From: a virus | Lineage: Duplodnaviria; Heunggongvirae; Uroviricota; Caudoviricetes | Direction: 5' to 3' (one strand) | Virus record (IMG/VR): IMGVR_UViG_2734482790_000004 | Length of the DNA: 64,000 nt | Part shown: positions 1 through 17,700 of the stretch, piece by piece | Numbering within the stretch: the stretch's first letter is position 1 | How the letters are laid out: the number at the start of each line of letters is the position of its first letter | Translations under genes and position numbers: made by a program | Notes under the pieces: generated by a model | Seen by the model: only the letters and a program-made list of their open reading frames with translations | The model's database searches: none | Told to the model about the DNA's origin: nothing

Positions 1-3000
1 ATGCCCGTCGATTTTCTGACCACTGAGCAGGAACTGAATTATGGTCGCTATGTTGCAGAACCCAATGACGTGCAGCTGGCGCGCTATTTTCATCTTGATG
101 AGCGGGATCTTGCCTTCATTAACCAGCGGCGGGGAAGGCATAACCGGCTGGGAATTGCGCTTCAGCTCACCACCGCCCGTTTTCTGGGCACCTTTCTGAC
201 AGACTTAACCCGGGTTCTGCCAGGTGTTCAGCAATTTGTCGCGGTGCAGCTTAATATTCGCCGTCCGGAAGTCCTTACCCGCTACGCAGAACGGGTTACC
301 ACCCTCAGAGAGCATACTGCGCTGATTAAGGAATATTACGGTTACCATGAATTTGGTGATTTCCCCTGGTCTTTCCGCCTGAAGCGCCTGCTGTACACCC
401 GCGCATGGCTCAGTAATGAGCGACCCGGCCTTATGTTTGATTTTGCCACCGCGTGGCTGCTTCAGAATAAGGTCCTGCTGCCCGGAGCAACCACACTTGT
501 ACGTCTCGTCAGTGAAATACGCGAACGGGCAAATCAGCGGCTGTGGAAGAAACTGGCCGCGTTGCCGGACAGCTGGCAGACCGCCCGCGTGACGGAGCTT
601 CTGGACATTCCTGAGGGGCAGCGTACTTCACCGCTGGAGCAACTGAAAAAGGGACCGGTCACCGTCAGCGGCCCGGCATTTACCGAAGCGCTGGAGCGGT
701 ATATCCGGCTGCGAAACCTGGAATTTTCCCGACTGAATTTTACCGGTCTGCCTGCTATACAACTGCGTAATTTGGCCCGTTACGCAGGCATGGCGTCGGT
801 AAAATATATCGCGCGAATGCCACAGCAGAGAAAACTGGCCGTACTCACAGCATTCGTTAAAGCGCAGGAGACTGCGGCGCTGGATGAGGCCGTTGATGTG
901 CTCGATATGCTGATACTGGATATCACTCGTGCGGCGAAGAAAACGGGGCAGAAAAAACGGCTCAGGACGCTTAAAGATCTTGATCGTGCTGCGCTAATAT
1001 TGGCGCGGGCATGTTCATTGTTGCTGGATGAACAGGCTGACGATGCTGAACTGAGGGAGACCATATTCAACAGCATACCGAAAAGCAGGCTGGCAGAATC
1101 CGTCAGCAAGGTAAATGAGCTGGCCCGGCCTCAGAACAACAATTTCCATGACGAAATGGTGGAGCAGTACGGGCGGGTAAAGCGCTTTCTTCCGGCGGTA
1201 TTGCGCGACCTGCATTTCCAGGCAGCGCCAGCCGGAGAACATACGTTGTCCGCCATTCATTATCTGACCGAACTGAACGGCTCGAAAAAGCGCATCCTGG
1301 ACAATGCGCCTGAACATATTATTACCGGCCCCTGGAAACGCCTGGTATACGATGCGGAGGGCCGGATACAGCGTGCCGGTTACTCGCTTTGTCTGCTGGA
1401 GCGCCTTCAGGATGCACTACGTCGAAGGGACATCTGGCTCGAAAACAGCGATCGCTGGGGAAATCCCCGCGAGAAGCTGTTGCAGGGGGAAGAATGGCAG
1501 GCTCAGCGGGTCCCCGTTTGCCGGGCGCTGGGACATCCCACTGATGGACATAAAGGCGTGCAACAGTTGGCGGTCCAGCTAGATGAAACCTGGAAAACCG
1601 TCGCATCCCGCTTTGAAGGAAATGCGGAGGTTCATATTTGCCATGACGGTAAACATCCTTCCCTGACTATCAGCAGCCTGGAGAAACTGGAGGAGCCAAC
1701 ATCGTTGCATCGTCTCAACAGTCGGGTAAGGCTGCTACTCCCGCCAGTAGATTTGACGGAACTGTTGCTTGAAATAGATGCCAGAACGGGATTTACACGT
1801 GAGTTTACGCATGTCAGTGAATCCGGGGCCCGGGCACAGGATCTGCACATCAGCCTGTGCGCGGTCCTGATGGCAGAGGCCTGCAATATCGGGCTGGAAC
1901 CGCTGATAAAGCACAATATACCGGCGCTGACGCGCCACCGGCTTAGCTGGGTAAAACAGAATTACCTCCGGGCAGAAACGCTGGTCAGCGCCAATGCCCG
2001 CCTGGTTGATTTTCAGTCCACACTGGAGCTTGCTGGCCGCTGGGGTGGTGGCGAAGTGGCTTCAGCTGATGGCATGCGCTTTGTCACGCCGGTGAAAACC
2101 GTCAATTCAGGACCTAACAGAAAATATTTTGGTTCCGGACGTGGCATCACCTGGTACAACTTCGTCTCTGATCAGTACTCTGGATTCCACGGCATCGTTG
2201 TCCCCGGCACATTACGAGATTCCATTTTTGTGCTGGAAGGCCTTCTGGAGCAGCAGACAGGGCTGAATCCGGTTGAGATCATGACAGACACAGCCGGTAC
2301 CAGCGACATTATTTTTGGCCTCTTCTGGCTGCTGGGATACCAGTTTTCCCCCCGGCTTGCCGATGCCGGTGAAGCGGTATTCTGGCGAGTGGATAAATCG
2401 GCAAATTACGGTGCACTGGACGAACTGGCACGTGGTTGTGCCGATCTGTCGAAAGCCGAGGATCAGTGGGATGAGATGATGCGAACCGCCGGTTCGCTGA
2501 AACTGGGCACCATTCATGCTTCAGAACTCATTCGCTCTTTGCTGAAAAGCTCGCGCCCATCAGGGCTGGCACAGGCGATCATGGAAGTGGGGCGCGTCAA
2601 CAAGACGCTGTACCTTCTTAATTATATTGATGATGAGGATTATCGTCGGCGGATCCTGACGCAGCTAAACCGGGGGGAAGGCCGCCATGCTGTGGCGAGG
2701 GCGATCTGCTACGGGCAGCGCGGTGAGATCAGAAAGCGCTATCGTGAAGGTCAGGAAGATCAGCTGGGGGCACTGGGCCTGGTCACTAACGCAGTGGTAC
2801 TGTGGAACACACTTTATATGCAGGAAGCCCTGAGCTGGATACGCAGTAATGGAGAAGAAATCGGGGTTGAAGATATCGCCCGGTTGTCCCCACTGATGCA
2901 CGGGCATATCAATATGCTGGGGCATTATACGTTTACGCTACCGGAGGATATTTTGAAGGGGGAACTGAGAGAACTAAATTTCAATTTAAACAATGAATTA

Positions 3001-3009
3001 ACTTCTTAG
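1..3009 (+). CDS. tnpA: Tn3-family transposase TnpA (1002 aa)
   Basis: ORF begins at window position 1 with ATG; N-terminus MPVDFLTTEQ and about 1000-aa length are typical of Tn3-family TnpA; stop codon lies inside the terminal inverted repeat. Confidence 0.9.
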   Translation: MPVDFLTTEQELNYGRYVAEPNDVQLARYFHLDERDLAFINQRRGRHNRLGIALQLTTARFLGTFLTDLTRVLPGVQQFVAVQLNIRRPEVLTRYAERVTTLREHTALIKEYYGYHEFGDFPWSFRLKRLLYTRAWLSNERPGLMFDFATAWLLQNKVLLPGATTLVRLVSEIRERANQRLWKKLAALPDSWQTARVTELLDIPEGQRTSPLEQLKKGPVTVSGPAFTEALERYIRLRNLEFSRLNFTGLPAIQLRNLARYAGMASVKYIARMPQQRKLAVLTAFVKAQETAALDEAVDVLDMLILDITRAAKKTGQKKRLRTLKDLDRAALILARACSLLLDEQADDAELRETIFNSIPKSRLAESVSKVNELARPQNNNFHDEMVEQYGRVKRFLPAVLRDLHFQAAPAGEHTLSAIHYLTELNGSKKRILDNAPEHIITGPWKRLVYDAEGRIQRAGYSLCLLERLQDALRRRDIWLENSDRWGNPREKLLQGEEWQAQRVPVCRALGHPTDGHKGVQQLAVQLDETWKTVASRFEGNAEVHICHDGKHPSLTISSLEKLEEPTSLHRLNSRVRLLLPPVDLTELLLEIDARTGFTREFTHVSESGARAQDLHISLCAVLMAEACNIGLEPLIKHNIPALTRHRLSWVKQNYLRAETLVSANARLVDFQSTLELAGRWGGGEVASADGMRFVTPVKTVNSGPNRKYFGSGRGITWYNFVSDQYSGFHGIVVPGTLRDSIFVLEGLLEQQTGLNPVEIMTDTAGTSDIIFGLFWLLGYQFSPRLADAGEAVFWRVDKSANYGALDELARGCADLSKAEDQWDEMMRTAGSLKLGTIHASELIRSLLKSSRPSGLAQAIMEVGRVNKTLYLLNYIDDEDYRRRILTQLNRGEGRHAVARAICYGQRGEIRKRYREGQEDQLGALGLVTNAVVLWNTLYMQEALSWIRSNGEEIGVEDIARLSPLMHGHINMLGHYTFTLPEDILKGELRELNFNLNNELTS

Positions 3010-3042
3010 CGTACGTTTTCGTTCCATTGGCCCTCAAACCCC
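3005..3042. mobile_element. Tn3-family terminal inverted repeat (38 bp), transposon end
   Basis: Reverse complement reads GGGGTTTGAGGGCCAATGGAACGAAAACGTACGCTAAG, closely matching Tn3/Tn1000-type 38-bp IRs (GGGG...ACGAAAAC...TAAG); overlaps the tnpA stop. Confidence 0.7.
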
Positions 3043-3115
3043 TTGTATCGGATTTTCCCTGTTACTCAGCAAATCCGCAGAAGTTACGTAATAAATCTCG
3101 CACAGGATGTGTCAG

Positions 3116-3718
3116 ATGACGAAAAATAAGTATGCAACGGTCGATTTTGACCAGGTTAATGAAAAGGGGCTGAAATCCCTTATCGCGGCGATCAATAAAA
3201 CCGGTGTTACGGTAATTGAGGTTGACTCCAGCAACCGCGCAACAACGAAAGATGGCGTTAAAGTTAAAACCGCAAAGCTGGTTCTTAACGACGGACAAAT
3301 TCTTGCCATACAGGTAAACGATACTGGCGATATATCGTCTGTGAAGCTGAATGGAAAAGCTATTCCTAACGCTCAGTCGCCGGATATCAAGACGCTTGGT
3401 ACCGTCATGGGGCAAGCGGCCAGCAAAAACTCCGCAAAATTCCAGAAATCACTGATCGCCAAAGCGAAACGTGTTGCCAATCCGGTAGACAAGAAACCGG
3501 CAGTAAAATCCAACTTTCAGCGCCTGCAAGAGGCAAAACAGCGGAATGCTCAGGTGGTTGCCGCTTATAAGTCCGCGCAGAATTCGGTGTCTTTCAATCA
3601 ACAGCAGATCACTGATTTGCGGGCGAAGCTGGATAAGGAGACAGGCCGACTCAATAACGAAAAGGCCCGAAATGGCGAACTCAAACGCCGTCTTAAGCAA
3701 CTGAAAGCAGGAAATTAA
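3116..3718 (+). CDS. hdf: first gene of darA operon, Hdf-like (ORF track start 3107; second ATG at 3116 has an AGGA RBS)
   Basis: Sits immediately upstream of the 639-aa DarA ORF with 1-nt spacing; position and size fit P1 hdf (recalled, not aligned). Confidence 0.5.
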   Translation: MTKNKYATVDFDQVNEKGLKSLIAAINKTGVTVIEVDSSNRATTKDGVKVKTAKLVLNDGQILAIQVNDTGDISSVKLNGKAIPNAQSPDIKTLGTVMGQAASKNSAKFQKSLIAKAKRVANPVDKKPAVKSNFQRLQEAKQRNAQVVAAYKSAQNSVSFNQQQITDLRAKLDKETGRLNNEKARNGELKRRLKQLKAGN

Positions 3719-3719
3719 C

Positions 3720-5639
3720 ATGGAACAGTTCAATATCAATAAAGGGGTGACGATCAAGCCTGGGCTTGACGTGCTTCCCCCGCCAGTGACTGATGATGAA
3801 TATCGCGCATTAATGGCCGGTGAGGACCGCTATCTGATGACGGAATCCAACACCCTGGAGGAAATCGAGGCTACGTTCTTCTATGACACGCCGATCCACT
3901 GGTGTGCTACGGATTTACTGGAGGCGATTAGTTCTACTCGTTTGCAGTTACACCGGACCATGCAGGCATTTGTCCGGGCATTGAACCAGAAGCTGAATGG
4001 TACCGGAATCTCTGCGGGGAGTGATAAAACGGGGGATGTGGCCCAGAGCGGCGCGCGCGCGATCGGCGGTGCTGAAATTGGCCGGGCACGTAACGTTAAC
4101 GGGCTGCCGGTCCTGCCAGCCATTATTCCGCTCAGTGATGGTCAGACTATCAGCATTCTGTTTCATAGCCCGACAGCGGAAAACCGGATCACCAATAGCG
4201 ATACGCTGGTTGCTTTCCAGTTCTTACTGAATAAAAAAGACGTTACTCACACCGTTGCTCCGATGAGTGGACGTGATATGACGCTGGCGCAGGTCACCAT
4301 GAAACTTGCCAACCTTGCAGAGAAAAACTCGGCAAAATTTCAGCGTGCGCAGAAGAAGAAAAAAGCCCTTGTTGATGAAATAACCCAACTACAGGCTGAC
4401 AGTGACCAGAAAGAGGATGCCATGAGCGACCTCGCGGATCAGGTGGCAGCGGTAGAAGGGCAGAAGGTAGATCTGGAGCAGAAAATTAACGCTGTTGCAT
4501 CGGAAGCGGATTCTCTTTATGAAGAGAATGAGCGTTTGCAGACGGAGATTGATCAGCTCAATCGAACTGGTGGGCGCGAAACCATTGCTCCTGCGGGGAT
4601 GACTGGTGGACACTCTCGCGCGATGACGGATCGCCTTGCAAGTATCAAAAATCGTATGCATATGAACGGGGAAGTGACGCTCAGTAATGGTGCATCAATG
4701 AAGCAATTCATTGAGGACGGTGAAGGGTATATCCAGTTAACCGATTCGGATGGCAGCGTGTACATGATCAAGGCTAAATCCATACAGGGTGTGGACATGG
4801 CAGATGCGATCGGCAAGCTGTTTAAAGCCTATAAAGCGGGTAATGTATCGGAATACCTGGTCCAACCAGAAGAACATAAACCGGAAAACGTCGAACCTGA
4901 ACCAGCGGAGGATACCGGTAGCTCTTCGCCTGAACCAGAAGTCTCTGTAGGTGCATATCGATATGCCCTGCAAATGCGTCCGGCGGCCCCTGGCGCAATA
5001 CCTGAAGGTAACAAAGCAATTCTGCCGCGCCCTGATGAAGGTGACCCGTATTATGAATATGCACGCTACGGCATTGCTACTTACGATACCCCGCTTTCTG
5101 ATCAGCAAATGAGTGAGTACGACCTGAAGTTATTGCCTCGCGAGGATTCTTTCGACTTCCTGGCGAAGACACTTACTAATGGTCCGTTTGGCAAATATGC
5201 ACAAAAAGCTCTGGAGCTGGCCACCAGCTCACCAGACGAGTTCCGCGTAATGCTGAAAACTCAGTTTCAAAAAACTTTCCCCAATATTGCGTTTCCGGGG
5301 GGCGCTGGCACCGAGAAAATGGTGCAGAGCATGATCAATGCATTGCAGGCCGAAGTCGGTGAGATTACTCAGCCAGAACCTGCCCCGGCACAGCCTGATG
5401 AAACGGTTAGCGAAGCAGATGCAGAGGCTAATAAAGCCATTGAATATCTCAATAACGTGATGGATATGCAAAGCACTGACATGGCGGAGATCCGTAACGC
5501 CCGGGGTAATGTCCGGGAAGCGATTGCAGCCCTTCAGGCTGCCGGGCGTTTTGAGGAAAACGAAGAGCTGGTTAATGGCGCTGCTCGCCACCTGGCTGAT
5601 CTGCTGGTAGCAATCCAGAAAGCGGGGGTAGCGGCATGA
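3720..5639 (+). CDS. darA: DarA-like antirestriction/capsid internal protein (639 aa)
   Basis: 639-aa ORF in operon with downstream small and large genes; size and context match P1 DarA. Confidence 0.75.
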   Translation: MEQFNINKGVTIKPGLDVLPPPVTDDEYRALMAGEDRYLMTESNTLEEIEATFFYDTPIHWCATDLLEAISSTRLQLHRTMQAFVRALNQKLNGTGISAGSDKTGDVAQSGARAIGGAEIGRARNVNGLPVLPAIIPLSDGQTISILFHSPTAENRITNSDTLVAFQFLLNKKDVTHTVAPMSGRDMTLAQVTMKLANLAEKNSAKFQRAQKKKKALVDEITQLQADSDQKEDAMSDLADQVAAVEGQKVDLEQKINAVASEADSLYEENERLQTEIDQLNRTGGRETIAPAGMTGGHSRAMTDRLASIKNRMHMNGEVTLSNGASMKQFIEDGEGYIQLTDSDGSVYMIKAKSIQGVDMADAIGKLFKAYKAGNVSEYLVQPEEHKPENVEPEPAEDTGSSSPEPEVSVGAYRYALQMRPAAPGAIPEGNKAILPRPDEGDPYYEYARYGIATYDTPLSDQQMSEYDLKLLPREDSFDFLAKTLTNGPFGKYAQKALELATSSPDEFRVMLKTQFQKTFPNIAFPGGAGTEKMVQSMINALQAEVGEITQPEPAPAQPDETVSEADAEANKAIEYLNNVMDMQSTDMAEIRNARGNVREAIAALQAAGRFEENEELVNGAARHLADLLVAIQKAGVAA

Positions 5640-6001
5640 CACTATCAGCTATTGAGTTAATGGATCTCAGCGATAAGTTGGATGCTCTGATGTCCAAAGC
5701 GGCTACCGCGAGTGGCATGGAGTTGCTGGATATCAGCGATGAAATCGACCAGATCATGCAACAGATGGGGTACGGCGCGTCCGGCGGTGGTAGTGGCGAG
5801 GAAAAACAACCTTCGGAACATGATGGTGTGCCAAAACTGGTTGCTGATTTCCTGGCTGATAAATTCGTCGATCAGAGCACCGATGCATTTATCGGTACCT
5901 TGCAGGATTTGAGTCAATATGTTGGCACATACATCGACCTGGACCAGGTTAAACAGCACACGGCGGCATGGATAGCCGCCAACATTAAAGAGGCAGCATA
6001 A
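5636..6001 (+). CDS. ddrA: DdrA-like protein (121 aa)
   Basis: ATGA overlap with darA stop; operon position matches P1 ddrA. Confidence 0.5.
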   Translation: MTLSAIELMDLSDKLDALMSKAATASGMELLDISDEIDQIMQQMGYGASGGGSGEEKQPSEHDGVPKLVADFLADKFVDQSTDAFIGTLQDLSQYVGTYIDLDQVKQHTAAWIAANIKEAA

Positions 6002-6013
6002 GGCGTAACAGGG

Positions 6014-9001
6014 ATGAGCTTAAGCGATCAGGTGGTAATGGCCACCAGCATAGAAACGCTGATCGAGCTGCTAAAGAACTTGCCCGATTATGGGCGGGTT
6101 TCGTATGTGGTGACAGCGAAGGGAGACGAGGTAAAAACAGCGTTTGATATCGTCGATGCCTCAGCTCTTTTGGTATCCAATACTCTGGATGGGAAAATTA
6201 ATCCTGACTATCCCCAGGAACTTCAACCGCGCGACCGGACCCGCGCATCCAGCCTTCTTCAGGTTAACCAGATATCCAAGGATTTGCGGCCTGCTCAGCT
6301 TACCGATTCCGGTCTATCCAGCCATGGCGCGCCGATAATTGGTGAGGACAATGCCGTTGAGTCAGGTAATGGACGGACCATGGGGATCATTAAAGCCTAT
6401 CAGGACGGCAATGCGGATCGGTATCGTGAGTACCTGATTGATCATGCGACCGAATTCGGCATACGACCTGAAAAGGTTGAATCAATGACGGCTCCGGTAC
6501 TGGTGCGCCGCCGGTTAACTAAGGTTGACCGCGTTCAGTTTGCCAAGGACTCAAATATTTCTGATCTTCAGGAAATGGCAGCCAGTGAAAAGGCTTTTGT
6601 TGATGCCGACAGCATAACACCGGCGATGATGGCGCTTTTTAACCCGTCAGAAAGCGGAGATCTGCTTAGCCGCAGTAATGACACGTTTATTCGCGGATTT
6701 ATGACGCAAGTTGGTGCCACACAGGCGGCTGGCCTTGTAACTGAAGATGGGCGACCAACACGGCAACTTGTAGACCGTATACAAAACGCGATCTTTGCCA
6801 AGGCATATAAGGATGCGCGCCTGGTAAGGATGGTTGCAGAAGAACCTGATCCGGATATGCGTAATGTTCTGACGGCGCTTAATGCGGCAGCCAATGATTT
6901 TGTCCAGATGCAGGCTTTGTCAGGAGAAGCGCACAAGCAGGCTGTGACAACTATTGTTGATGGCATTGAGACAGCGGATAGCCTCGATAAAAAGGCGCTG
7001 GCGGCATTGAAAGATGCGGTAGACCTGGTAAGGCAATCGAAGGAGTCAGGCCAGCATATTACCGATGTTATTGCTCAGGGGGATATGTTCAGCGAAACGG
7101 CCCCGGAAGTGAAAGCACTCGCGTTGTTCATCGTCGCGAATAACCGTAGCGCGAAGCGTATGGCCACCGCCTTTAAATTGATGGCTCAACGTATCAATGA
7201 TGAGTTACAGCACCAGTGCCAGGCGCTGGGGGATATGTTTGGCGGTGGTGATGTGTCGTTACAGGATATCCTTCGCCAGGTGTCTCAGGAACTGGAAAAC
7301 GAAGGCATGCAAGGGATATCCGGCGGTCTTTTCGAGTCCGTTTCCGGCGGTAGTTACAACGGTGTTGCTCCATATACCAGTTTGCTATTACATCGGGCAT
7401 CCGGCATCAAAGACATTATTCATCTGATCAGGCTGCTTTCCCGTACAGATCCCCAGGATGAACAGCTTGTTCAAGTGCTTGCGCATTTTGTTCGAATGCC
7501 TGTTGCCGACGTGAAAAAATGGTGCCGATTATTCGGTATCAGCAATTCGTTACTTCGCGGCTTGTTAAATCACGCATCCTCCCTTGGGCGCGATGGCTTT
7601 GACGAGATAGCGCAGGCGATAAAAAACGGAGATATGCCACCAGCTATTGACTGGTTTTCCATTCGCCCAACCAGGGTGAAAGCATTCCTTAGCGCGGCGC
7701 ATTCGGCATCACCATTGGCAGAAATGGTTCAGAGGTTGTCGCTCATATTCACAGACCATACCGCGTTGGGTGATCTGACTCTGGACGAGATGAAAGAAGC
7801 CTCCATTCAGTGGGCCGATCAACAAAATGAGGTTAACTCAGACTTCTTGCCAGCATTCAGGAAGGCCGTTAGTAAAGCGGATGATGCCCGTGGAATTCTG
7901 AAGGCATTTAAGGCATTGCAAAGTCGGGTTAATAAACATGTCGGTGATATCGATGGGGTAACGGCGGAAGGCAGGGATATCCTTAAAGAGCACGGCATAA
8001 CGCCAGAGTTTATTGATGAGATCAGGACGGATATGCAGCGTGAGGTCGTATCGTCCCTGCAAATTGTAGCCAGAGCATTGGCGGATGCTAATCCGAAGAG
8101 TGCGGCCATTGTTAACCGGGTTATTGGTGATATTGAAGCATCGGAGGGCATGGGGGCGCTGAAACTCTTCCTTTCGCGAGCGTTTAATCCTAACGGCAAT
8201 ATTCTCCCTGGCATTATTGGTGAGGCTAAAAGGTATGTCAGTGAAGAAGAACTTGAGCAGCTTGACCAACTACTTAAGCGATTCTCATATAACCCGCAGA
8301 CACGCTGGCAAATGAATCAGCGAAGTATGGGTTCGGTCCACGAGAAAGTGTTATCTGCCATGAACAGTGCGATCGCAAACTCATCCGTATCTGAAGAAAA
8401 AGCTCTTGAGTGGGCCGACTCTTTTATCACGGAAGAAGTGGAAGAAGCCCGCGCTGGACAGAATGGTGGGATAGACCTGCGCAAGGAACTTGCTGATATT
8501 TATCGCCTGACCGGCGGTAAAATTTCGACCTTATCAAAGGTGGTTCACCACCAGGGAAGGGCATATGCAAATCTTAATGGTGTTGTTGCTGTCAATTTGA
8601 ACGATGAAAATGCAAGTGCACTGTGGCACGAGCTGGGTCATCATCTTGAGTACAGTAACCCTGGTTTGTTAGAGAAAGCCCGGTCATTCCTGAAGGCCAA
8701 TGTTGAAGGGGATAAGCCATCTTTCGTTAATATCGGTGGGCGTGGCAAGCCTGAATGGTGCTTCAGATCTCGATTGAGTAATATTTATATGGCGAAGGTA
8801 TACCCGCCAGCCTCAGTGAGTAACTCCGGGAAAATTCGGCAGAAAGCACCGACTATTTCAAAAACATCAGCAACGGAAGTATTCTCTATGGCTCTTCAGT
8901 TGTATCATGACAAAGAGGCCGCTGCCGCATCACTGATGAATGGTGACGGATTGCTGGAACTGTTATTAGGTGTGGCAAAGGAGCTAAATAATGCAGATTA
9001 A
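6014..9001 (+). CDS. ddrB: DdrB-like large protein (995 aa) with HEXXH motif
   Basis: Operon position and size; contains WHELGHHLEY (zincin-like HEXXH) at about nt 8627-8641. Confidence 0.55.
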   Translation: MSLSDQVVMATSIETLIELLKNLPDYGRVSYVVTAKGDEVKTAFDIVDASALLVSNTLDGKINPDYPQELQPRDRTRASSLLQVNQISKDLRPAQLTDSGLSSHGAPIIGEDNAVESGNGRTMGIIKAYQDGNADRYREYLIDHATEFGIRPEKVESMTAPVLVRRRLTKVDRVQFAKDSNISDLQEMAASEKAFVDADSITPAMMALFNPSESGDLLSRSNDTFIRGFMTQVGATQAAGLVTEDGRPTRQLVDRIQNAIFAKAYKDARLVRMVAEEPDPDMRNVLTALNAAANDFVQMQALSGEAHKQAVTTIVDGIETADSLDKKALAALKDAVDLVRQSKESGQHITDVIAQGDMFSETAPEVKALALFIVANNRSAKRMATAFKLMAQRINDELQHQCQALGDMFGGGDVSLQDILRQVSQELENEGMQGISGGLFESVSGGSYNGVAPYTSLLLHRASGIKDIIHLIRLLSRTDPQDEQLVQVLAHFVRMPVADVKKWCRLFGISNSLLRGLLNHASSLGRDGFDEIAQAIKNGDMPPAIDWFSIRPTRVKAFLSAAHSASPLAEMVQRLSLIFTDHTALGDLTLDEMKEASIQWADQQNEVNSDFLPAFRKAVSKADDARGILKAFKALQSRVNKHVGDIDGVTAEGRDILKEHGITPEFIDEIRTDMQREVVSSLQIVARALADANPKSAAIVNRVIGDIEASEGMGALKLFLSRAFNPNGNILPGIIGEAKRYVSEEELEQLDQLLKRFSYNPQTRWQMNQRSMGSVHEKVLSAMNSAIANSSVSEEKALEWADSFITEEVEEARAGQNGGIDLRKELADIYRLTGGKISTLSKVVHHQGRAYANLNGVVAVNLNDENASALWHELGHHLEYSNPGLLEKARSFLKANVEGDKPSFVNIGGRGKPEWCFRSRLSNIYMAKVYPPASVSNSGKIRQKAPTISKTSATEVFSMALQLYHDKEAAAASLMNGDGLLELLLGVAKELNNAD

Positions 9002-9296
9002 AATCGCAGCGCCATTAGGCGGAGATGCCATTATCGAATTTGATGATAATGAAGAAGTTTCCGGGCGTTTAAGCATTATCTCCGGTGACATTACCGAGGA
9101 CATGATCGCTGAAGCCATAGCTGGGGCAAATCCCAATAGCTATATGGGATTCGTTAACACCCTTGATGCTCCCGCAAGTGATGTTCTCCGAACGCTGCAT
9201 CTTTACGCTGGCTGGTTTGTCGATTGGCCAGCAGTAGAGGGTGGCGATGAGGACGACGATGATTTTGGGGATCATGTAGACCAGATCGTATATTAA
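8991..9296 (+). CDS. acidic hypothetical protein, distal gene of darA operon (101 aa)
   Basis: Overlaps ddrB stop; D/E-rich C-terminus. Confidence 0.4.
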   Translation: MQIKIAAPLGGDAIIEFDDNEEVSGRLSIISGDITEDMIAEAIAGANPNSYMGFVNTLDAPASDVLRTLHLYAGWFVDWPAVEGGDEDDDDFGDHVDQIVY

Positions 9297-9425
9297 CTCC
9301 CTGATAGTGCACAAATAATCTGTTCTGATATGTTAATTGTGTACTTAAAGTAAACGCGTAGTGGCTTGCTTTAGGTTATGGAAGCAAGCTATTGCCTAAT
9401 ATGTTAGATCAAAAAATTTTAATTT

Positions 9426-10214
9426 TTGCGTTTCGCTCACCACATATTGAACACTTTAGCCGATCTTTTAATTCTTCCAGAGTCAATCCTGAAGCTACAG
9501 TTTGGTGGAGATACCTGGACTCAGACTGATGTATTTATGACCCAGCGTGCTACTGGCGTCGCGACCTATCGTAACAATGATTTCTTCGGCTTGGTTGATG
9601 GTCTGAACTTTGCTTTGCAGTATCAGGGTAAAAATGATAGTGCTGCAAAAGTGAACAACTGGAAAGGCCGCGACGTAGTTGAATCTAATGGTGATGGCTT
9701 CGGTCTGTCAGCTACTTATGATTATGAAGGATTTGGCATTGGCGCAACTTATGCAAAATCTGACCGTACTGATGGACAGGTATCCTATGCTAAAGCCCCT
9801 CTGAATCTGAATGCCTCTGGTAAAACTGCTGAAGTATGGGCTACGGGCCTGAAATATGATGCAAACAACATTTACCTGGCTACAACTTATTCTGAAACTC
9901 AGAATATGACAGTCTTCGGTGATGACCATATCGCGAACAAGGCGAAAAACTTTGAAGCCGTTGCTCAATACCAGTTTGATTTCGGCCTGCGTCCGTCCAT
10001 CGCTTACCTACACTCTCGCGGTGAAAATATTGGTGCGTTCGGTAACCAGGATCTGGTTGAATACATCGACGTGGGCGCGACTTATTACTTTAACAAAAAT
10101 ATGTCCGCTTTCGTTGACTACAAGATCAACCTGATTGATGAAAGTGAATTTACCAAAACATCTGAGGTTGCAACCGACAACATCGTTGCTGTTGGTATGA
10201 CCTACCAATTCTAA
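9426..10214 (+). pseudogene. 5'-truncated OmpC/OmpF-family porin gene fragment
   Basis: Translation from about nt 9500 has the porin C-terminal beta-barrel pattern and ends VAVGMTYQF (porin C-terminal signature); N-terminal part of a roughly 360-aa porin is absent; ORF-track start MRFAHH is not a real porin start. Confidence 0.75.
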
Positions 10215-10289
10215 TTTTGGTAGGTAAGAATATGCGGGAAGGGAGTGATGTCACTGCCCGCATATAGGTGGCACCCTCATGCCACCTTT

Positions 10290-10314
10290 GAAGAGGCAAT
10301 AAAATTGCCTCTTC
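10290..10314 (+). terminator. stem-loop after porin fragment (GAAGAGGCAAT aaa ATTGCCTCTTC)
   Basis: Perfect 11-bp inverted repeat followed by a weak T tract. Confidence 0.4.
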
Positions 10315-10369
10315 TCAATTTAACTTCATGTTATTTATTACCTTTTTATTAATTTGAAACTCTATTGTT

Positions 10370-10396
10370 GGGGCGCTTTGTTGCGCCCATTTTTTT
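10370..10396 (+). terminator. rho-independent terminator
   Basis: GGGGCGC tttgtt GCGCCC followed by ATTTTTTT. Confidence 0.7.
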
Positions 10397-10447
10397 ACAC
10401 CAATTAGGTAAAGTTATTTTTAAGTAATCGAGCAACTTTCAGCCCTC

Positions 10448-10936
10448 TCAAAATGGAATATCGTCTTCAAAGTCCATTGGAGGTTCGCTATTGGCGTTGC
10501 TCTGAGGTTTACTGCCACCGCTGTATTGCTGGTGGTTTTGAGGTTGGTTTGACTGCCCCCAGCCATTTGAGAATTGTGAATCGTCGCGGCGAGCGCCGAT
10601 CATTTGCATGGTGCCGCCCTGGCTGACGATAATTTCCGTCGTGTAACGATCTACACCGGCGTCATCTGTCCACTTACGGGTTTTAAGTTTCCCTTCGATG
10701 TAGACCTGAGAACCTTTTCGTAAATACTCACTCGCAATTTCAGCAAGTTTCCCGAACAAAACGACTCTATGCCATTCTGTTTGCTCTTTCTGTTGGCCCG
10801 TTTGCTTGTCGCGCCATGATTCATTTGTTGCGATGCTTAGTCTTCCGACCGTTCCGCCATTTGGTATATACCTGATCTCCGGGTCTTGCCCCAGGGTACC
10901 AATCAGGATGACTTTGTTTACACCGCGTTGTGCCAC
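10448..10936 (-). CDS. ssb: single-stranded DNA-binding protein (162 aa)
   Basis: OB-fold SSB sequence with acidic C-terminal tail DFEDDIPF. Confidence 0.9.
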
Positions 10937-10956
10937 TTTTCTTACCCAATAAAATA

Positions 10957-10973
10957 AATTAATTAGAGCAATA
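10957..10973 (-). promoter_or_regulatory. C1 operator-like site (AAATTAATTAGAGCAAT)
   Basis: 16/17 match to reverse complement of P1 C1 operator consensus ATTGCTCTAATAAATTT; in ssb/lyz intergenic region. Confidence 0.55.
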
Positions 10974-11105
10974 ATGTATATCTTTGAAACGTAGCTAACA
11001 AGTGATTTGCATTATCCTGTGTCTTCTAAAGGGATCGAGTCAGTCGGTATTGGCTGTGAATGGGTGTTTGTCCTGGAGCGTAAAAAATTCGCTTATGAGG
11101 TCTTT

Positions 11106-11663
11106 ATGAAGGGAAAAACAGCCGCAGGAGGCGGTGCAATTTGCGCTATCGCGGTGATGATTACCATCGTGATGGGTAATGGCAATGTGCGAACCAACCA
11201 GGCGGGGCTTGAGCTGATTGGTAACGCTGAAGGTTGCCGACGTGATCCATACATGTGCCCGGCGGGGGTATGGACTGACGGGATCGGTAATACACACGGG
11301 GTAACGCCGGGTGTGCGAAAAACCGACCAGCAAATCGCCGCTGATTGGGAAAAGAATATCCTGATCGCTGAACGCTGTATTAATCAGCACTTTCGGGGCA
11401 AAGACATGCCCGATAATGCCTTCAGTGCAATGACAAGCGCGGCATTCAATATGGGATGCAATAGCTTACGGACCTACTACAGCAAAGCGCGAGGCATGCG
11501 AGTCGAAACGTCCATCCACAAGTGGGCGCAGAAAGGGGAATGGGTAAATATGTGTAACCATCTCCCTGATTTTGTGAACAGTAACGGCGTGCCCCTGCGA
11601 GGTTTAAAGATTCGCCGTGAAAAAGAACGCCAGCTTTGCCTGACGGGGCTGATCAATGAATAA
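11106..11663 (+). CDS. lyz: SAR-type endolysin (lysozyme), 185 aa from MKGKTAAGG start
   Basis: N-terminal Gly/Ala-rich weakly hydrophobic signal-anchor-release segment followed by a T4-lysozyme-like domain; ORF-track start at 11007 is probably upstream of the real start. Confidence 0.8.
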   Translation: MKGKTAAGGGAICAIAVMITIVMGNGNVRTNQAGLELIGNAEGCRRDPYMCPAGVWTDGIGNTHGVTPGVRKTDQQIAADWEKNILIAERCINQHFRGKDMPDNAFSAMTSAAFNMGCNSLRTYYSKARGMRVETSIHKWAQKGEWVNMCNHLPDFVNSNGVPLRGLKIRREKERQLCLTGLINE

Positions 11664-11910
11664 ACTCCGGCAGCTCCGCCGACTTTCGACAATGAAGTTA
11701 TCGCTGGCGGCGATAGTTTTCGACTCGATTTTCATGGCGGTATATGTGCTCAATGAGACGTGGCCACTGGAACCGCTATTGTATGCTGGGCTTCGACTGT
11801 GCCTGACATTTTTGAGCATGGCTGCAAGATTGATGCAGCAGAAAGAAACCGCTTCAGATTGTCCACGCCGCGCGGTGCGCAAATATATGGCACGCAGGCG
11901 AAGGCGATAA
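11656..11910 (+). CDS. small membrane protein overlapping lyz stop (84 aa)
   Basis: ATG overlaps the last lyz codons; hydrophobic segments; followed by a terminator at 11924-11949. Confidence 0.4.
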   Translation: MNKLRQLRRLSTMKLSLAAIVFDSIFMAVYVLNETWPLEPLLYAGLRLCLTFLSMAARLMQQKETASDCPRRAVRKYMARRRRR

Positions 11911-11923
11911 TAGTTAACGATAA

Positions 11924-11949
11924 CCCCGGCAGCCGCCGGGGTTATTTTT
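11924..11949 (+). terminator. rho-independent terminator (CCCCGGC agcc GCCGGGG TTATTTTT)
   Basis: GC stem plus T-run; lies between convergent lyz-side and head-gene operons. Confidence 0.7.
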
Positions 11950-11954
11950 GGTGG

Positions 11955-14685
<2,731 letters not shown>

Positions 14686-14751
14686 TTAATTAGAATAATT
14701 CGCATCGTGTTTGAACGGAATTTAACACTAGTCACTTGTTAAGGATTACCA

Positions 14752-17700
14752 ATGAACAAGCTATCTATGGGTGTGTTTCGCTGTTCAAGTGTCAGCGAAA
14801 TATTGAAATACATTAGGGCAATAACATCTCACCGAGCGCCGATTAAATACGGCGTGGAAAAGGTGGAAGGCAAAAGCTATGACCGACTGCGCCGGGAGGC
14901 GAATCAGAAGGCGATAGATTTGCTTAATTCGCTGGTGGACGGCGCGACACTGACAGATGAACAGCGCCAGATCCTGGCCGGGTACACTGGTGAAGGCGGC
15001 ATTGGCGGGTCCGTCTCCGAATATTACACACCAAAGCCTATCGCTGAAGGTGTCTGGGAGATCATGAAGCTCTACGGCGCGGACGTAGGTAACACTCTGG
15101 AACCATCGGCGGGAACCGGCGTTTTTAATGAGACAAAACCGGTTGGTACGGTGATGACCGCGACTGAGATCAGCAGTGTTTCCGGTCGTATAAACCAGTT
15201 GTTACACCCGGAAGACAGCGTACAGATTTCCCCGTTCGAACAGCTGGCTATAAACACGCCTAACGATTCATTCGACCATGTTGTGGGTAACGTTCCGTTC
15301 GGCGGTCGTGATAACACACGCAACATCGATAAGCCTTACGCAGAAGAAACGGACATGGGGTCTTACTTCATGCTCCGCATGCTGGACAAGATAAAACCTG
15401 GCGGATTCATGTGTGTGATTGTGCCGCCGTCCATTGTTTCAGGTTCAAACATGAAACGGTTACGCCTGCGCCTATCACGGAAAGCTGAATTTCTTGGTGC
15501 CCACCGCTTGCCTACCGGTACTTTTGACGCAAACGGGACCAGTACAGTTGTTGATGTGGTGCTGATGCGCAAACATCCGGCAGAGATGGCTGAGAAAATC
15601 CCCCTGGTGGATGAAAGCACTCTCGAATCGGCAAATGTGCTTTGGCCAACGTTTATTTCTGGCAAGTGGTTTGAAAAGGACGGCCGCCGGTTTGTTCATG
15701 GCACCCAGGAAAAGGGCTTCCAGGGGCGTATTGAGGTTCGTGCCGACGGTCAGATTGATAACCAGGCTCTTAAAGCGAAGCTGATTCATCGTTTCGAAAG
15801 CCGTATCGACTGGTCTTTGCTCGATATGGCTGAACCGTCACCGACCGCAGACGTTGTTGGTGAAGGGGAAATGCGCCTGATTAATGGCGTATGGCAAAAA
15901 TATGCTGGTGGTCGCTGGATTGAAGCTGATGCAGGGAAGGAACTTAAGATCGATGCTGCCAGTTATGGCGCGGATAGCTGGGAGGCTCTTCAGCGTAACC
16001 TGACTACAACAGAAGGCCGTCTCGGCATGACATTTACCCAGATGGCAAATGTCCGCGATAAGTACACCACATCAATCAGCGACGATATGGTGCAGCTGGT
16101 GGACTGGATTAACAGCCAGCCTGAAAAATACCGTGAACGCTTGTATCGCGGGGCGATGATTGGCCGGATGTTAATTGAATATCAGGACATGAAGGCCGCC
16201 GGGCATAGTGCTGAACAAATCGAACAGCAGCGCCTTTCTCTGGTATCCCGTTTGCAGGCAGAGATTGACCGTTTTGGTAACCCCGGTCGCGGTCCGATAG
16301 CGAAATTATCGGGGAGCGGTGCGCGCGCCTGGTTTGCTTTCCGTGGTGCAATTAAGCTGGATGGCACTATTTCTGACGAGCTGACAGGAAAACTGGTTAC
16401 GCATGATTCCAGCGCCAGTTATGACTCCACCAGCTATCAGGACACCCTGCGTTATCTCTACAGTGATCTCACTCGCGATCCAATCCAGCTCGATGATTTC
16501 CGCCTTGCGTTTACCGGCGAACTGCCAGCCAGTGATGACGAGTTGCTTAATTTATTGGCCAGCACCCCTGGCATTGCGGTTTCACCGTATGGCGGGATTG
16601 TTCCGTTCGCCCGCGCCACCAGCGGCGACATTAACGAGATAGTGGCTCCAAAACAGGAATTCCTCGCCACGCTCCCCGACGGTCCAGTAAAGAACAACGT
16701 CCTTAATCAGCTGGCAGCGATCGAAGAGAAGCGCATCAAGACGCCAGCAGAGAATATCCGCTTTAAGCTCAATAGCCGTTGGTTCGACCGTTCCGTCATT
16801 CTGGAGTTTTTGCAGGAAAACGGCTATCCGGATCTGCGCTATGTGCAGTCAGTGCAGCTGGAAGGCGACGAAATGGTTTCTGACACCTATCACGGTGGTG
16901 ATGGCCTGTTCGTCGGGCACCGATACGGTGTCGTCCAGCGTAAGGATAAAGAAACAGGCGAGATCCGCTACGAGTGGGACCGTAAATCAGGTGAAAACGC
17001 GACCGGGTTCCCGGCACAGCTGGAAAAGTATCTCAATGGTGCGCGTATCGGTGGCAAAGATAGCGCGACGGCGAACGGCTACCGCGAGCAGATGGCACTG
17101 CTTGAGGACCAGTTCAATAAGTGGATCAAGACGCACGATCGCTACGATGAGCTGGTTGCTAAATACAACGATGTGTTCAATAGCAATATCCCGTATGAAC
17201 ACTCTGGCGATCCGCTTGGGTTGAAGGGATTAAGCGGTAAGCGCCAGCCATTTGATTACCAGAATAGCGAGGTGCGCCGACTGTCCGAAGATGGGCGCGG
17301 CATCCTGGGCTTCGGCACCGGGCTGGGTAAAACCACGACCGCGCTGGCGCTTGAGGCGTTCAACTATGAGAACGGTCGCTCCACCCGTACTGCGTATGTA
17401 GTGCCTAAATCAGTGCTGGAAAACTGGTATTACGAAGCAAAAGAATTCCTGAGTGAAGAGGCATTCAGTAACTACCTGTTCGTCGGTCTTGATGTGCTGA
17501 TGGATGGCGATCAGATTCGCCAGGTGCAGGTGCTCGATGAGAACGGTAAACCTGTTCTTGGTACTGATGGCACTCCAGTTATGCGCGATGCTCTTAAGCT
17601 GGCAGATGAAGCCACTATCACGGCGCGGATGAACGCGATCCCGCACTCAAATTACCGTGCAGTCGTGTTTACCAAAGAACAATACGCCCGCATTCCGCTA

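Follow-up and report, generated by a model that had tools for sequence, protein, structure and literature searches.

Genes and features between the darA operon and ssb

The window, a 64,000-nucleotide stretch of DNA, belongs to a P1/P7-type (Punavirus) phage-plasmid, and its positions 3037-25000 were about 98% identical to P7, JL22, P1 and their relatives. The best alignments to P1/P7-type phage records left positions 1-3036 unmatched. This left-hand segment encodes a Tn3-family transposase (PF01526, DDE_Tnp_Tn3, E 1e-150, plus DUF4158), the window beginning exactly at its ATG, and it adjoins the hdf/darA genes; of the 2369 plasmid records found with window positions 1-12000, most appear to owe their match to it.

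The porin fragment studied here lies between the darA operon and ssb, where the initial annotation had placed it. The features of the locus are collected in Table 1. The gene on the left, the last of the darA operon, encodes a homolog of OdaA/Hxr that is identical to P7 OdaA at the corresponding site and matched no Pfam or NCBIfam family. The terminator region behind it was placed by an 89% alignment with the P1 darA-operon record AJ000741 (L012 530-603), and its hairpins were seen in the fold; it has no T-run, and a simple terminator scan skipped it. On the right, the ssb assignment was given by the Pfam SSB family (E 8.8e-40) and by the P7 annotation. This locus corresponds to RD-2 of Venturini et al. 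(2019), a hot-spot of variation rich in IS elements (PMC6906374).

In P1, the same slot between hxr and ssb is filled by isaB-IS1-isaA, so the statement in the initial annotation that P1 carries an IS1 at this location was correct. In contrast to P1, the window lacks IS1, isaA and a full-length isaB and has a P7-type porin cassette instead. What the two arrangements share is the 3' remnant of isaB: the minus-strand translation of 9409-9499 matched the C-terminus of P1 IsaB. Since P7 and the window have both kept this remnant, it seems that an isaB-containing arrangement was replaced by the porin cassette.

Table 1. Features of the porin locus, with window coordinates (+, plus strand; -, minus strand;., not stranded).
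Feature	Position	Strand	Size	Remarks
Tn3-family transposase gene	1-3009	+	1002 aa	Left end of the window
odaA/hxr homolog	8991-9296	+	101 aa	Final gene of the darA operon
darA-operon terminator region	9329-9402	+		Upstream of the porin remnant; hairpins near 9306-9345 and 9349-9395
isaB 3' remnant	9409-9499	-	91 bp	29 codons and stop; common to P1 and P7
Mechanical ORF	9426-10214	+	262 aa	TTG start; residues 1-24 antisense isaB remnant, 25 hybrid codon, 26-262 porin
Deletion junction	9499/9500	.		9499 equals P7 L001 3300 and also 4237; 1 nt (A) common
nmpC pseudogene remnant	9500-10214	+		Codons 135-371 and stop; 100% identical to P7
IpeX-like 3'UTR	10215-10396	+	182 nt	Homology to DLP12 nmpC / PA-2 lc 3'UTR
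Hairpin SL1	10230-10265	+		From the fold
Hairpin SL2	10266-10287	+		From the fold
Hairpin SL3	10290-10314	+		From the fold
Conserved unpaired stretch	~10318-10345	+		Before the terminator; kept across both clades
Terminator hairpin	10371-10388	+		GC-rich; T-run to 10396; from the terminator scan
ssb	10448-10936	-	162 aa	Convergent with the porin remnant

Comparison with family profiles indicated that the ORF encodes the C-terminal part of a general porin. Residues 25-262 aligned with positions 105-337 of the 337-position Pfam family PF00267 (Porin_1; E 8.7e-94, 315 bits), and residues 26-262 (237 residues) were identical to residues 135-371 of P7 NmpC. The protein ends in VAVGMTYQF, with a terminal Phe directly before the stop codon at 10212-10214. 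A C-terminal aromatic residue of this kind is the outer-membrane assembly signal of porins. Both the estimate of about 240 C-terminal residues of an OmpC/OmpF-type porin and the VAVGMTYQF ending given in the initial annotation were thus borne out. In the NCBIfam OmpC subfamily NF007841, the remnant covered positions 130-368 of 368 and scored 321.9 bits; with a third of the protein gone, this falls short of the 484-bit cut-off, whereas the intact P7 NmpC scored 531.1 bits. The intact P7 homolog also matched the solved structures of OmpC, OmpK36 and Omp36, with E values of about 1e-133 to 1e-136.

The remnant falls short of a full-length 16-strand barrel, its match being limited to the C-terminal two-thirds of the family profile. 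The lost N-terminal part contains the 23-residue signal peptide that is annotated in P7 (codons 1-23). The remnant has no N-terminal Sec signal peptide, the N-terminus of the ORF being antisense isaB sequence. The N-terminal third with its signal peptide had already been described as missing, and 134 residues are in fact gone. The initial annotation had also considered an intact porin start with a signal peptide in another frame; a search of the rest of the window in every frame found no copy of the missing 936 bp, of NmpC residues 1-133 or of any other porin N-terminus. Without a signal peptide and with no more than the C-terminal two-thirds of the profile, the predicted product can be neither exported nor folded into a complete 16-strand barrel. 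Public gene calls begin at ATG 9537 and give a 225-aa product. On reading the sequence, we saw no Shine-Dalgarno-like sequence near TTG 9426 or near ATG 9537.

The deletion junction and the origin of the truncation

A full-length porin gene occupies this site in the relatives of the window. P7 carries an intact gene between odaA and ssb, annotated as NmpC precursor (371 aa) with a signal peptide, and intact porin genes were found at the same site in JL22, where the gene is named ompD, and in phi456. The same porin gene is listed in the published gene table of a P7-like mcr-1 plasmid (PMC5786510). Among the matching plasmids in PLSDB, 99 of 129 have a single place that contains 80% or more of the P7 segment. 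Judged by these records, full-length nmpC is the normal resident of the locus between the darA operon and ssb, and an intact cassette is the norm.

A megablast search of window positions 9200-10500 against 50,697 phage records returned P7 (AF503408 / NC_050152) at 100% identity; the match is split in two and extends over 2238 bp in P7 but 1301 bp in the query. Window positions 8001-9499 matched P7 L001 1802-3300 at 100%, and positions 9499-12000 matched P7 L001 4237-6738 at 99.6%. P7 L001 3301-4236, a segment of 936 bp, is absent from the window. Of these, 536 bp precede the nmpC ATG (3837), and the remainder runs through codon 133 to the first base of codon 134. The right breakpoint lies inside the PEFGGD motif (VLPEFGGDTW in P7), and the left breakpoint lies inside the isaB 3' remnant. 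The homology between P1 and P7 stops 18 bp further to the right, at P7 L001 3318. This divergence point is the left edge of RD-2, and we treated its closeness to the breakpoint as a coincidence, the two positions being different. Compared with P7 nmpC, which is annotated as ompC or ompD in P7-like plasmids, the window has the same locus and the same flanks and is 100% identical over all that remains; it differs by the loss of 936 bp, and with them of codons 1-134, signal peptide included, and of the upstream region.

We searched the junction for traces of the event. No direct or inverted repeats bridging both breakpoints were found in P7, and no target-site duplication or terminal inverted repeat was found at 9499/9500. 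The P1 isaB-IS1-isaA segment had no match in the whole window beyond the 91-bp isaB remnant, and no IS sequence was present at the junction.

Since the window is 100% identical to P7 on either side of a single junction, the truncation occurred in place. The porin sequence is thus very probably a P7-type nmpC pseudogene that arose by an in-place 936-bp deletion, with the IpeX-like 3'UTR described below still intact. The locus would first have held a P7-type porin cassette consisting of a promoter and 5'UTR, nmpC (371 codons), and an IpeX-like 3'UTR with its terminator. One illegitimate-recombination event, involving neither an IS nor a repeat, would then have removed 936 bp, from the isaB 3' remnant to nmpC codon 134. 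On its upstream side (536 bp), this deletion would have taken a P7-specific spacer together with the promoter and 5'UTR of the cassette, and within the gene it would have taken the signal peptide and, as far as PEFGGD, roughly the first third of the barrel. What was left behind would be a promoterless porin pseudogene without a signal peptide, followed by an intact IpeX-like 3'UTR and terminator that have lost their native promoter and are now positioned behind the darA-operon terminator. With 100% identity to P7, the remnant shows no decay, which agrees with a recent deletion but provides no independent sign of relaxed selection.

The initial annotation had interpreted the fragment as a footprint of host or phage porin DNA that was captured and truncated by IS-mediated or illegitimate recombination. 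In one form of this reading, porin DNA was captured already truncated by means of IS1 or another IS; in another, an IS upstream of nmpC caused an adjacent deletion and was later lost. An involvement of IS elements would be in keeping with the IS1 of P1 at this locus, with the reputation of the locus as an IS-rich variation hot-spot (PMC6906374), with the IS10/ISVsa5 copies within nmpC on other plasmids, and with the IS remnants that flank chromosomal copies of the cassette. However, both flanks of the junction are 100% P7 in native order and orientation, as a simple internal deletion predicts; no IS1, isaA, other IS, target-site duplication or terminal inverted repeat was found at the junction, and an IS-adjacent deletion would leave the IS behind. 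We therefore consider an IS-based origin very unlikely. The idea of captured DNA gives way to a P7-type resident gene truncated in place, and the donor to be sought among enterobacterial porin genes is P7-type nmpC itself, at 100% nucleotide identity. Of the two processes named, illegitimate recombination is the likely cause.

Occurrence of the deletion allele and other losses of nmpC

To determine how widespread the deletion is, we searched sequence collections for the junction. No junction-spanning record was found in the phage, PLSDB plasmid or complete E. coli genome collections: among the matches, none of 10 phage records, none of 130 PLSDB records and none of 136 E. coli records covered at least 80% of positions 9300-9700. 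Most matching records showed the two halves of 9300-9700 as separate places, which is the intact arrangement. An exact-pattern scan of viral, genome and metagenome contig collections with the 34-nt junction gave zero matches, and an exact look-up of the 262-aa TTG-start product returned nothing. The 225-aa ATG-start product was found in three public contigs, and both loci inspected (L003 and L004) carry the identical junction.

The first of these, Logan SRR25184332 (L003), was 100% identical to window positions 6979-15214 (8236 bp) and diverged to the left of 6979. In L003 1-936, the part that corresponds to window positions 6043-6978, ddrB is shortened (638 aa vs 995) and adjoins an ArsA_ATPase-like gene. 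By its sequence, L003 is another backbone, in which this nmpC deletion allele goes together with a second rearrangement. The second, ENA ERZ27235139 (L004), was 99.2% identical to window positions 8984-15214; all 48 mismatches lay at or beyond 11393, in lyz, pro and prt, and L004 was identical to the window across 8984-11392, deletion included. This mosaic pattern is consistent with recombination among P1-like plasmids.

These contigs bear on whether the junction could be an assembly or sequencing artefact, with the real molecule still carrying the 936 bp and the assembly having collapsed them. Such an artefact would account for the lack of the junction in every phage, plasmid and complete E. 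coli genome record searched, yet two independent assemblies, each from a different project, share the identical junction with flanks unlike the window and unlike each other, and no repeat able to cause a collapse is present. An artefact is thus extremely improbable; as the contigs read, the deletion allele is natural and occurs on at least two or three distinguishable backbones. The allele is rare, because the scans of viral, genome and metagenome contigs found no junction, and its persistence is based on three contigs.

Other losses of nmpC at this locus were found in PLSDB. Independent losses occurred in NZ_CP126933.1, CP100027.1, NZ_CP101271.1 and NZ_MN510446.1 (pSvP1); IS10/ISVsa5 insertions in nmpC were found in pSvP1, CP100027.1 and NZ_CP101271.1, and one plasmid retains just 616 bp upstream of nmpC. 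The nmpC::IS10 allele of pSvP1 is a published precedent for inactivation (PMC6906374). Taken together, these plasmids point to recurrent inactivation of the accessory porin at this locus. The window allele resembles pSvP1 nmpC::IS10 (PMC6906374) and K-12 DLP12 nmpC::IS5 in that all are phage-borne general porin genes inactivated in place. It differs from them in mechanism: the DLP12 and pSvP1 alleles are IS insertions (near the 3' end in K-12), whereas the window allele is a 5' deletion without an IS. The porin coding sequence of the window is about 75% identical to that of DLP12 nmpC.

Copies of the porin and IpeX-like 3'UTR cassette were also found at other loci (L006 5752-7192, L007 5713-7234, L011 1735-3197 and L009 2777-4170), with 76-95% identity to P7. 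Those in E. coli chromosomes sit between IS and TnpB remnants, and the copy on a conjugative plasmid lies directly upstream of another ssb gene. This distribution suggests that the porin and its 3'UTR move as a unit. The cassette shared with E. coli chromosomes and another plasmid starts about 190 bp upstream of the ATG (P7 ~3650).

The IpeX-like 3'UTR, expression and significance

Several stem-loops and a strong terminator had been noted downstream of the porin, and folding agreed with this: the 182-nt 3'UTR forms three hairpins before the terminator at 10371-10396, and its minimum free energy was -66.9 kcal/mol compared with -41.5 ± 4.2 kcal/mol for shuffled sequences (z = -6.1). The 3'UTR and terminator are 100% identical to P7. 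The P7 and JL22 annotations show no feature between the porin stop codon and ssb. IpeX, the 3'UTR of nmpC in the cryptic E. coli K-12 prophage DLP12 and of lc in phage PA-2, is a 167-nt RNA that represses OmpC and OmpF (PMC12197685, PMC3333887, PMC5069750, PMC7177473; reviews and secondary papers), and it is made from the porin promoter, within the porin transcript (PMC12197685).

The 3'UTR of the window occupies the position of IpeX, from the porin stop codon (10212-10214) to the rho-independent terminator (10371-10396). A distant-mode blastn search of the phage collection with the window 3'UTR found P7-type records only, and the same search with the K-12 sequence missed the P7-type records, finding lambdoid phages only (93% identity or above). 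Because the distant-mode search stayed within P7-type records, homology to IpeX had to be assessed by direct alignment. In a global alignment with K-12 ipeX, 126 of 153 aligned positions were identical (z = 8.6 against dinucleotide shuffles), and blastn aligned P7 4918-5084 with K-12 L008 3564-3399 at 70.3% over 175 columns. The PA-2 lc 3'UTR was 100% identical to the K-12 DLP12 nmpC sequence used. A consensus fold of six sequences from six genomic contexts gave four hairpins, with compensatory changes on both sides in 11 of 38 pairs; the six sequences come from just two clades, and indels leave some columns misaligned. As judged by these alignments, the 3'UTR at 10215-10396 is homologous to IpeX. 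The likeness extends to the position, about 70% blastn identity, the four-hairpin layout and the unpaired stretch before the terminator. The window and P7-type 3'UTRs differ from IpeX in forming a divergent clade with an extra 17-18 nt before the terminator.

Rfam was also consulted. GcvB (RF00022) gave a full-length match to 10210-10396 of 30.5 bits, below the gathering score of 42 (E 2.4e-4 for 2.1 kb). GcvB was ruled out: the homologous K-12 ipeX gave no GcvB match, and the six UTRs aligned locally to E. coli gcvB scored at the shuffle mean (z ~0). We regard the match as a chance likeness of layout, with a 5' hairpin, a U-rich linker and a terminator. For K-12 ipeX itself, no Rfam family matched above threshold.

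The P7-type cassette looks like the lc/ipeX module of PA-2, which combines a new porin with an RNA that lowers the host porins. Because the shared cassette starts at P7 ~3650, inside the deleted stretch, the control region of the porin is likely to have been deleted with it. A consensus sigma-70 scan of window positions 8900-11100 found no plus-strand promoter-like site. No plus-strand consensus site was found in the deleted P7 upstream region either, so the position of the native promoter is deduced and not seen. We infer that the porin remnant and the IpeX-like RNA are transcriptionally silent, and that lysogenic conversion, which would combine a new porin with repression of host OmpC and OmpF, has been lost.

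Alternatively, the remnant could still be functional, either as a cytoplasmic or novel protein of 225-262 aa or, more plausibly, through transcription of the IpeX-like 3'UTR, which would then repress OmpC and OmpF without supplying a replacement porin. Consistent with a function are the wholly intact, P7-identical 3'UTR and terminator, the reading frame that is open from 9426, and the spread to or persistence of the allele on at least two or three backbones. Against a function stand the missing signal peptide, the lack of Shine-Dalgarno-like sequences near TTG 9426 and ATG 9537, the annotated terminator upstream and the absence of plus-strand promoter-like sites in 8900-11100; in addition, IpeX comes from the porin promoter (PMC12197685), a region that is deleted here. 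A functional remnant is accordingly rated as unlikely. A related and distinctly improbable possibility is that the deletion has uncoupled the IpeX-like RNA from the porin, and that the RNA is still expressed and lowers host OmpC and OmpF alone. Such transcription could start at a cryptic promoter within what is left of the coding sequence, or reach the RNA by read-through of the late darA operon. If this were so, the allele would lower outer-membrane permeability, with antibiotic tolerance or exclusion of OmpC-dependent phages as the outcome, and this could account for the same allele on more than one backbone.

Returning to the preferred reading, a silent pseudogene left by an in-place deletion, positions 9500-10214 are best annotated as a P7-type nmpC pseudogene and not as a protein of 225 or 262 aa. 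P7 nmpC, the RD-2 locus and the inactivation of phage-borne porin genes are all known already. What is new is narrow: the 936-bp deletion allele, and the recognition of an IpeX homolog in the P7-type cassette. For biology at large the allele carries little weight, as another inactivated accessory gene in a hot-spot of P1-like phage-plasmids. P7-like plasmids with an intact cassette would probably remodel the porin set of their host as PA-2 does, an ability that the window allele would have lost.
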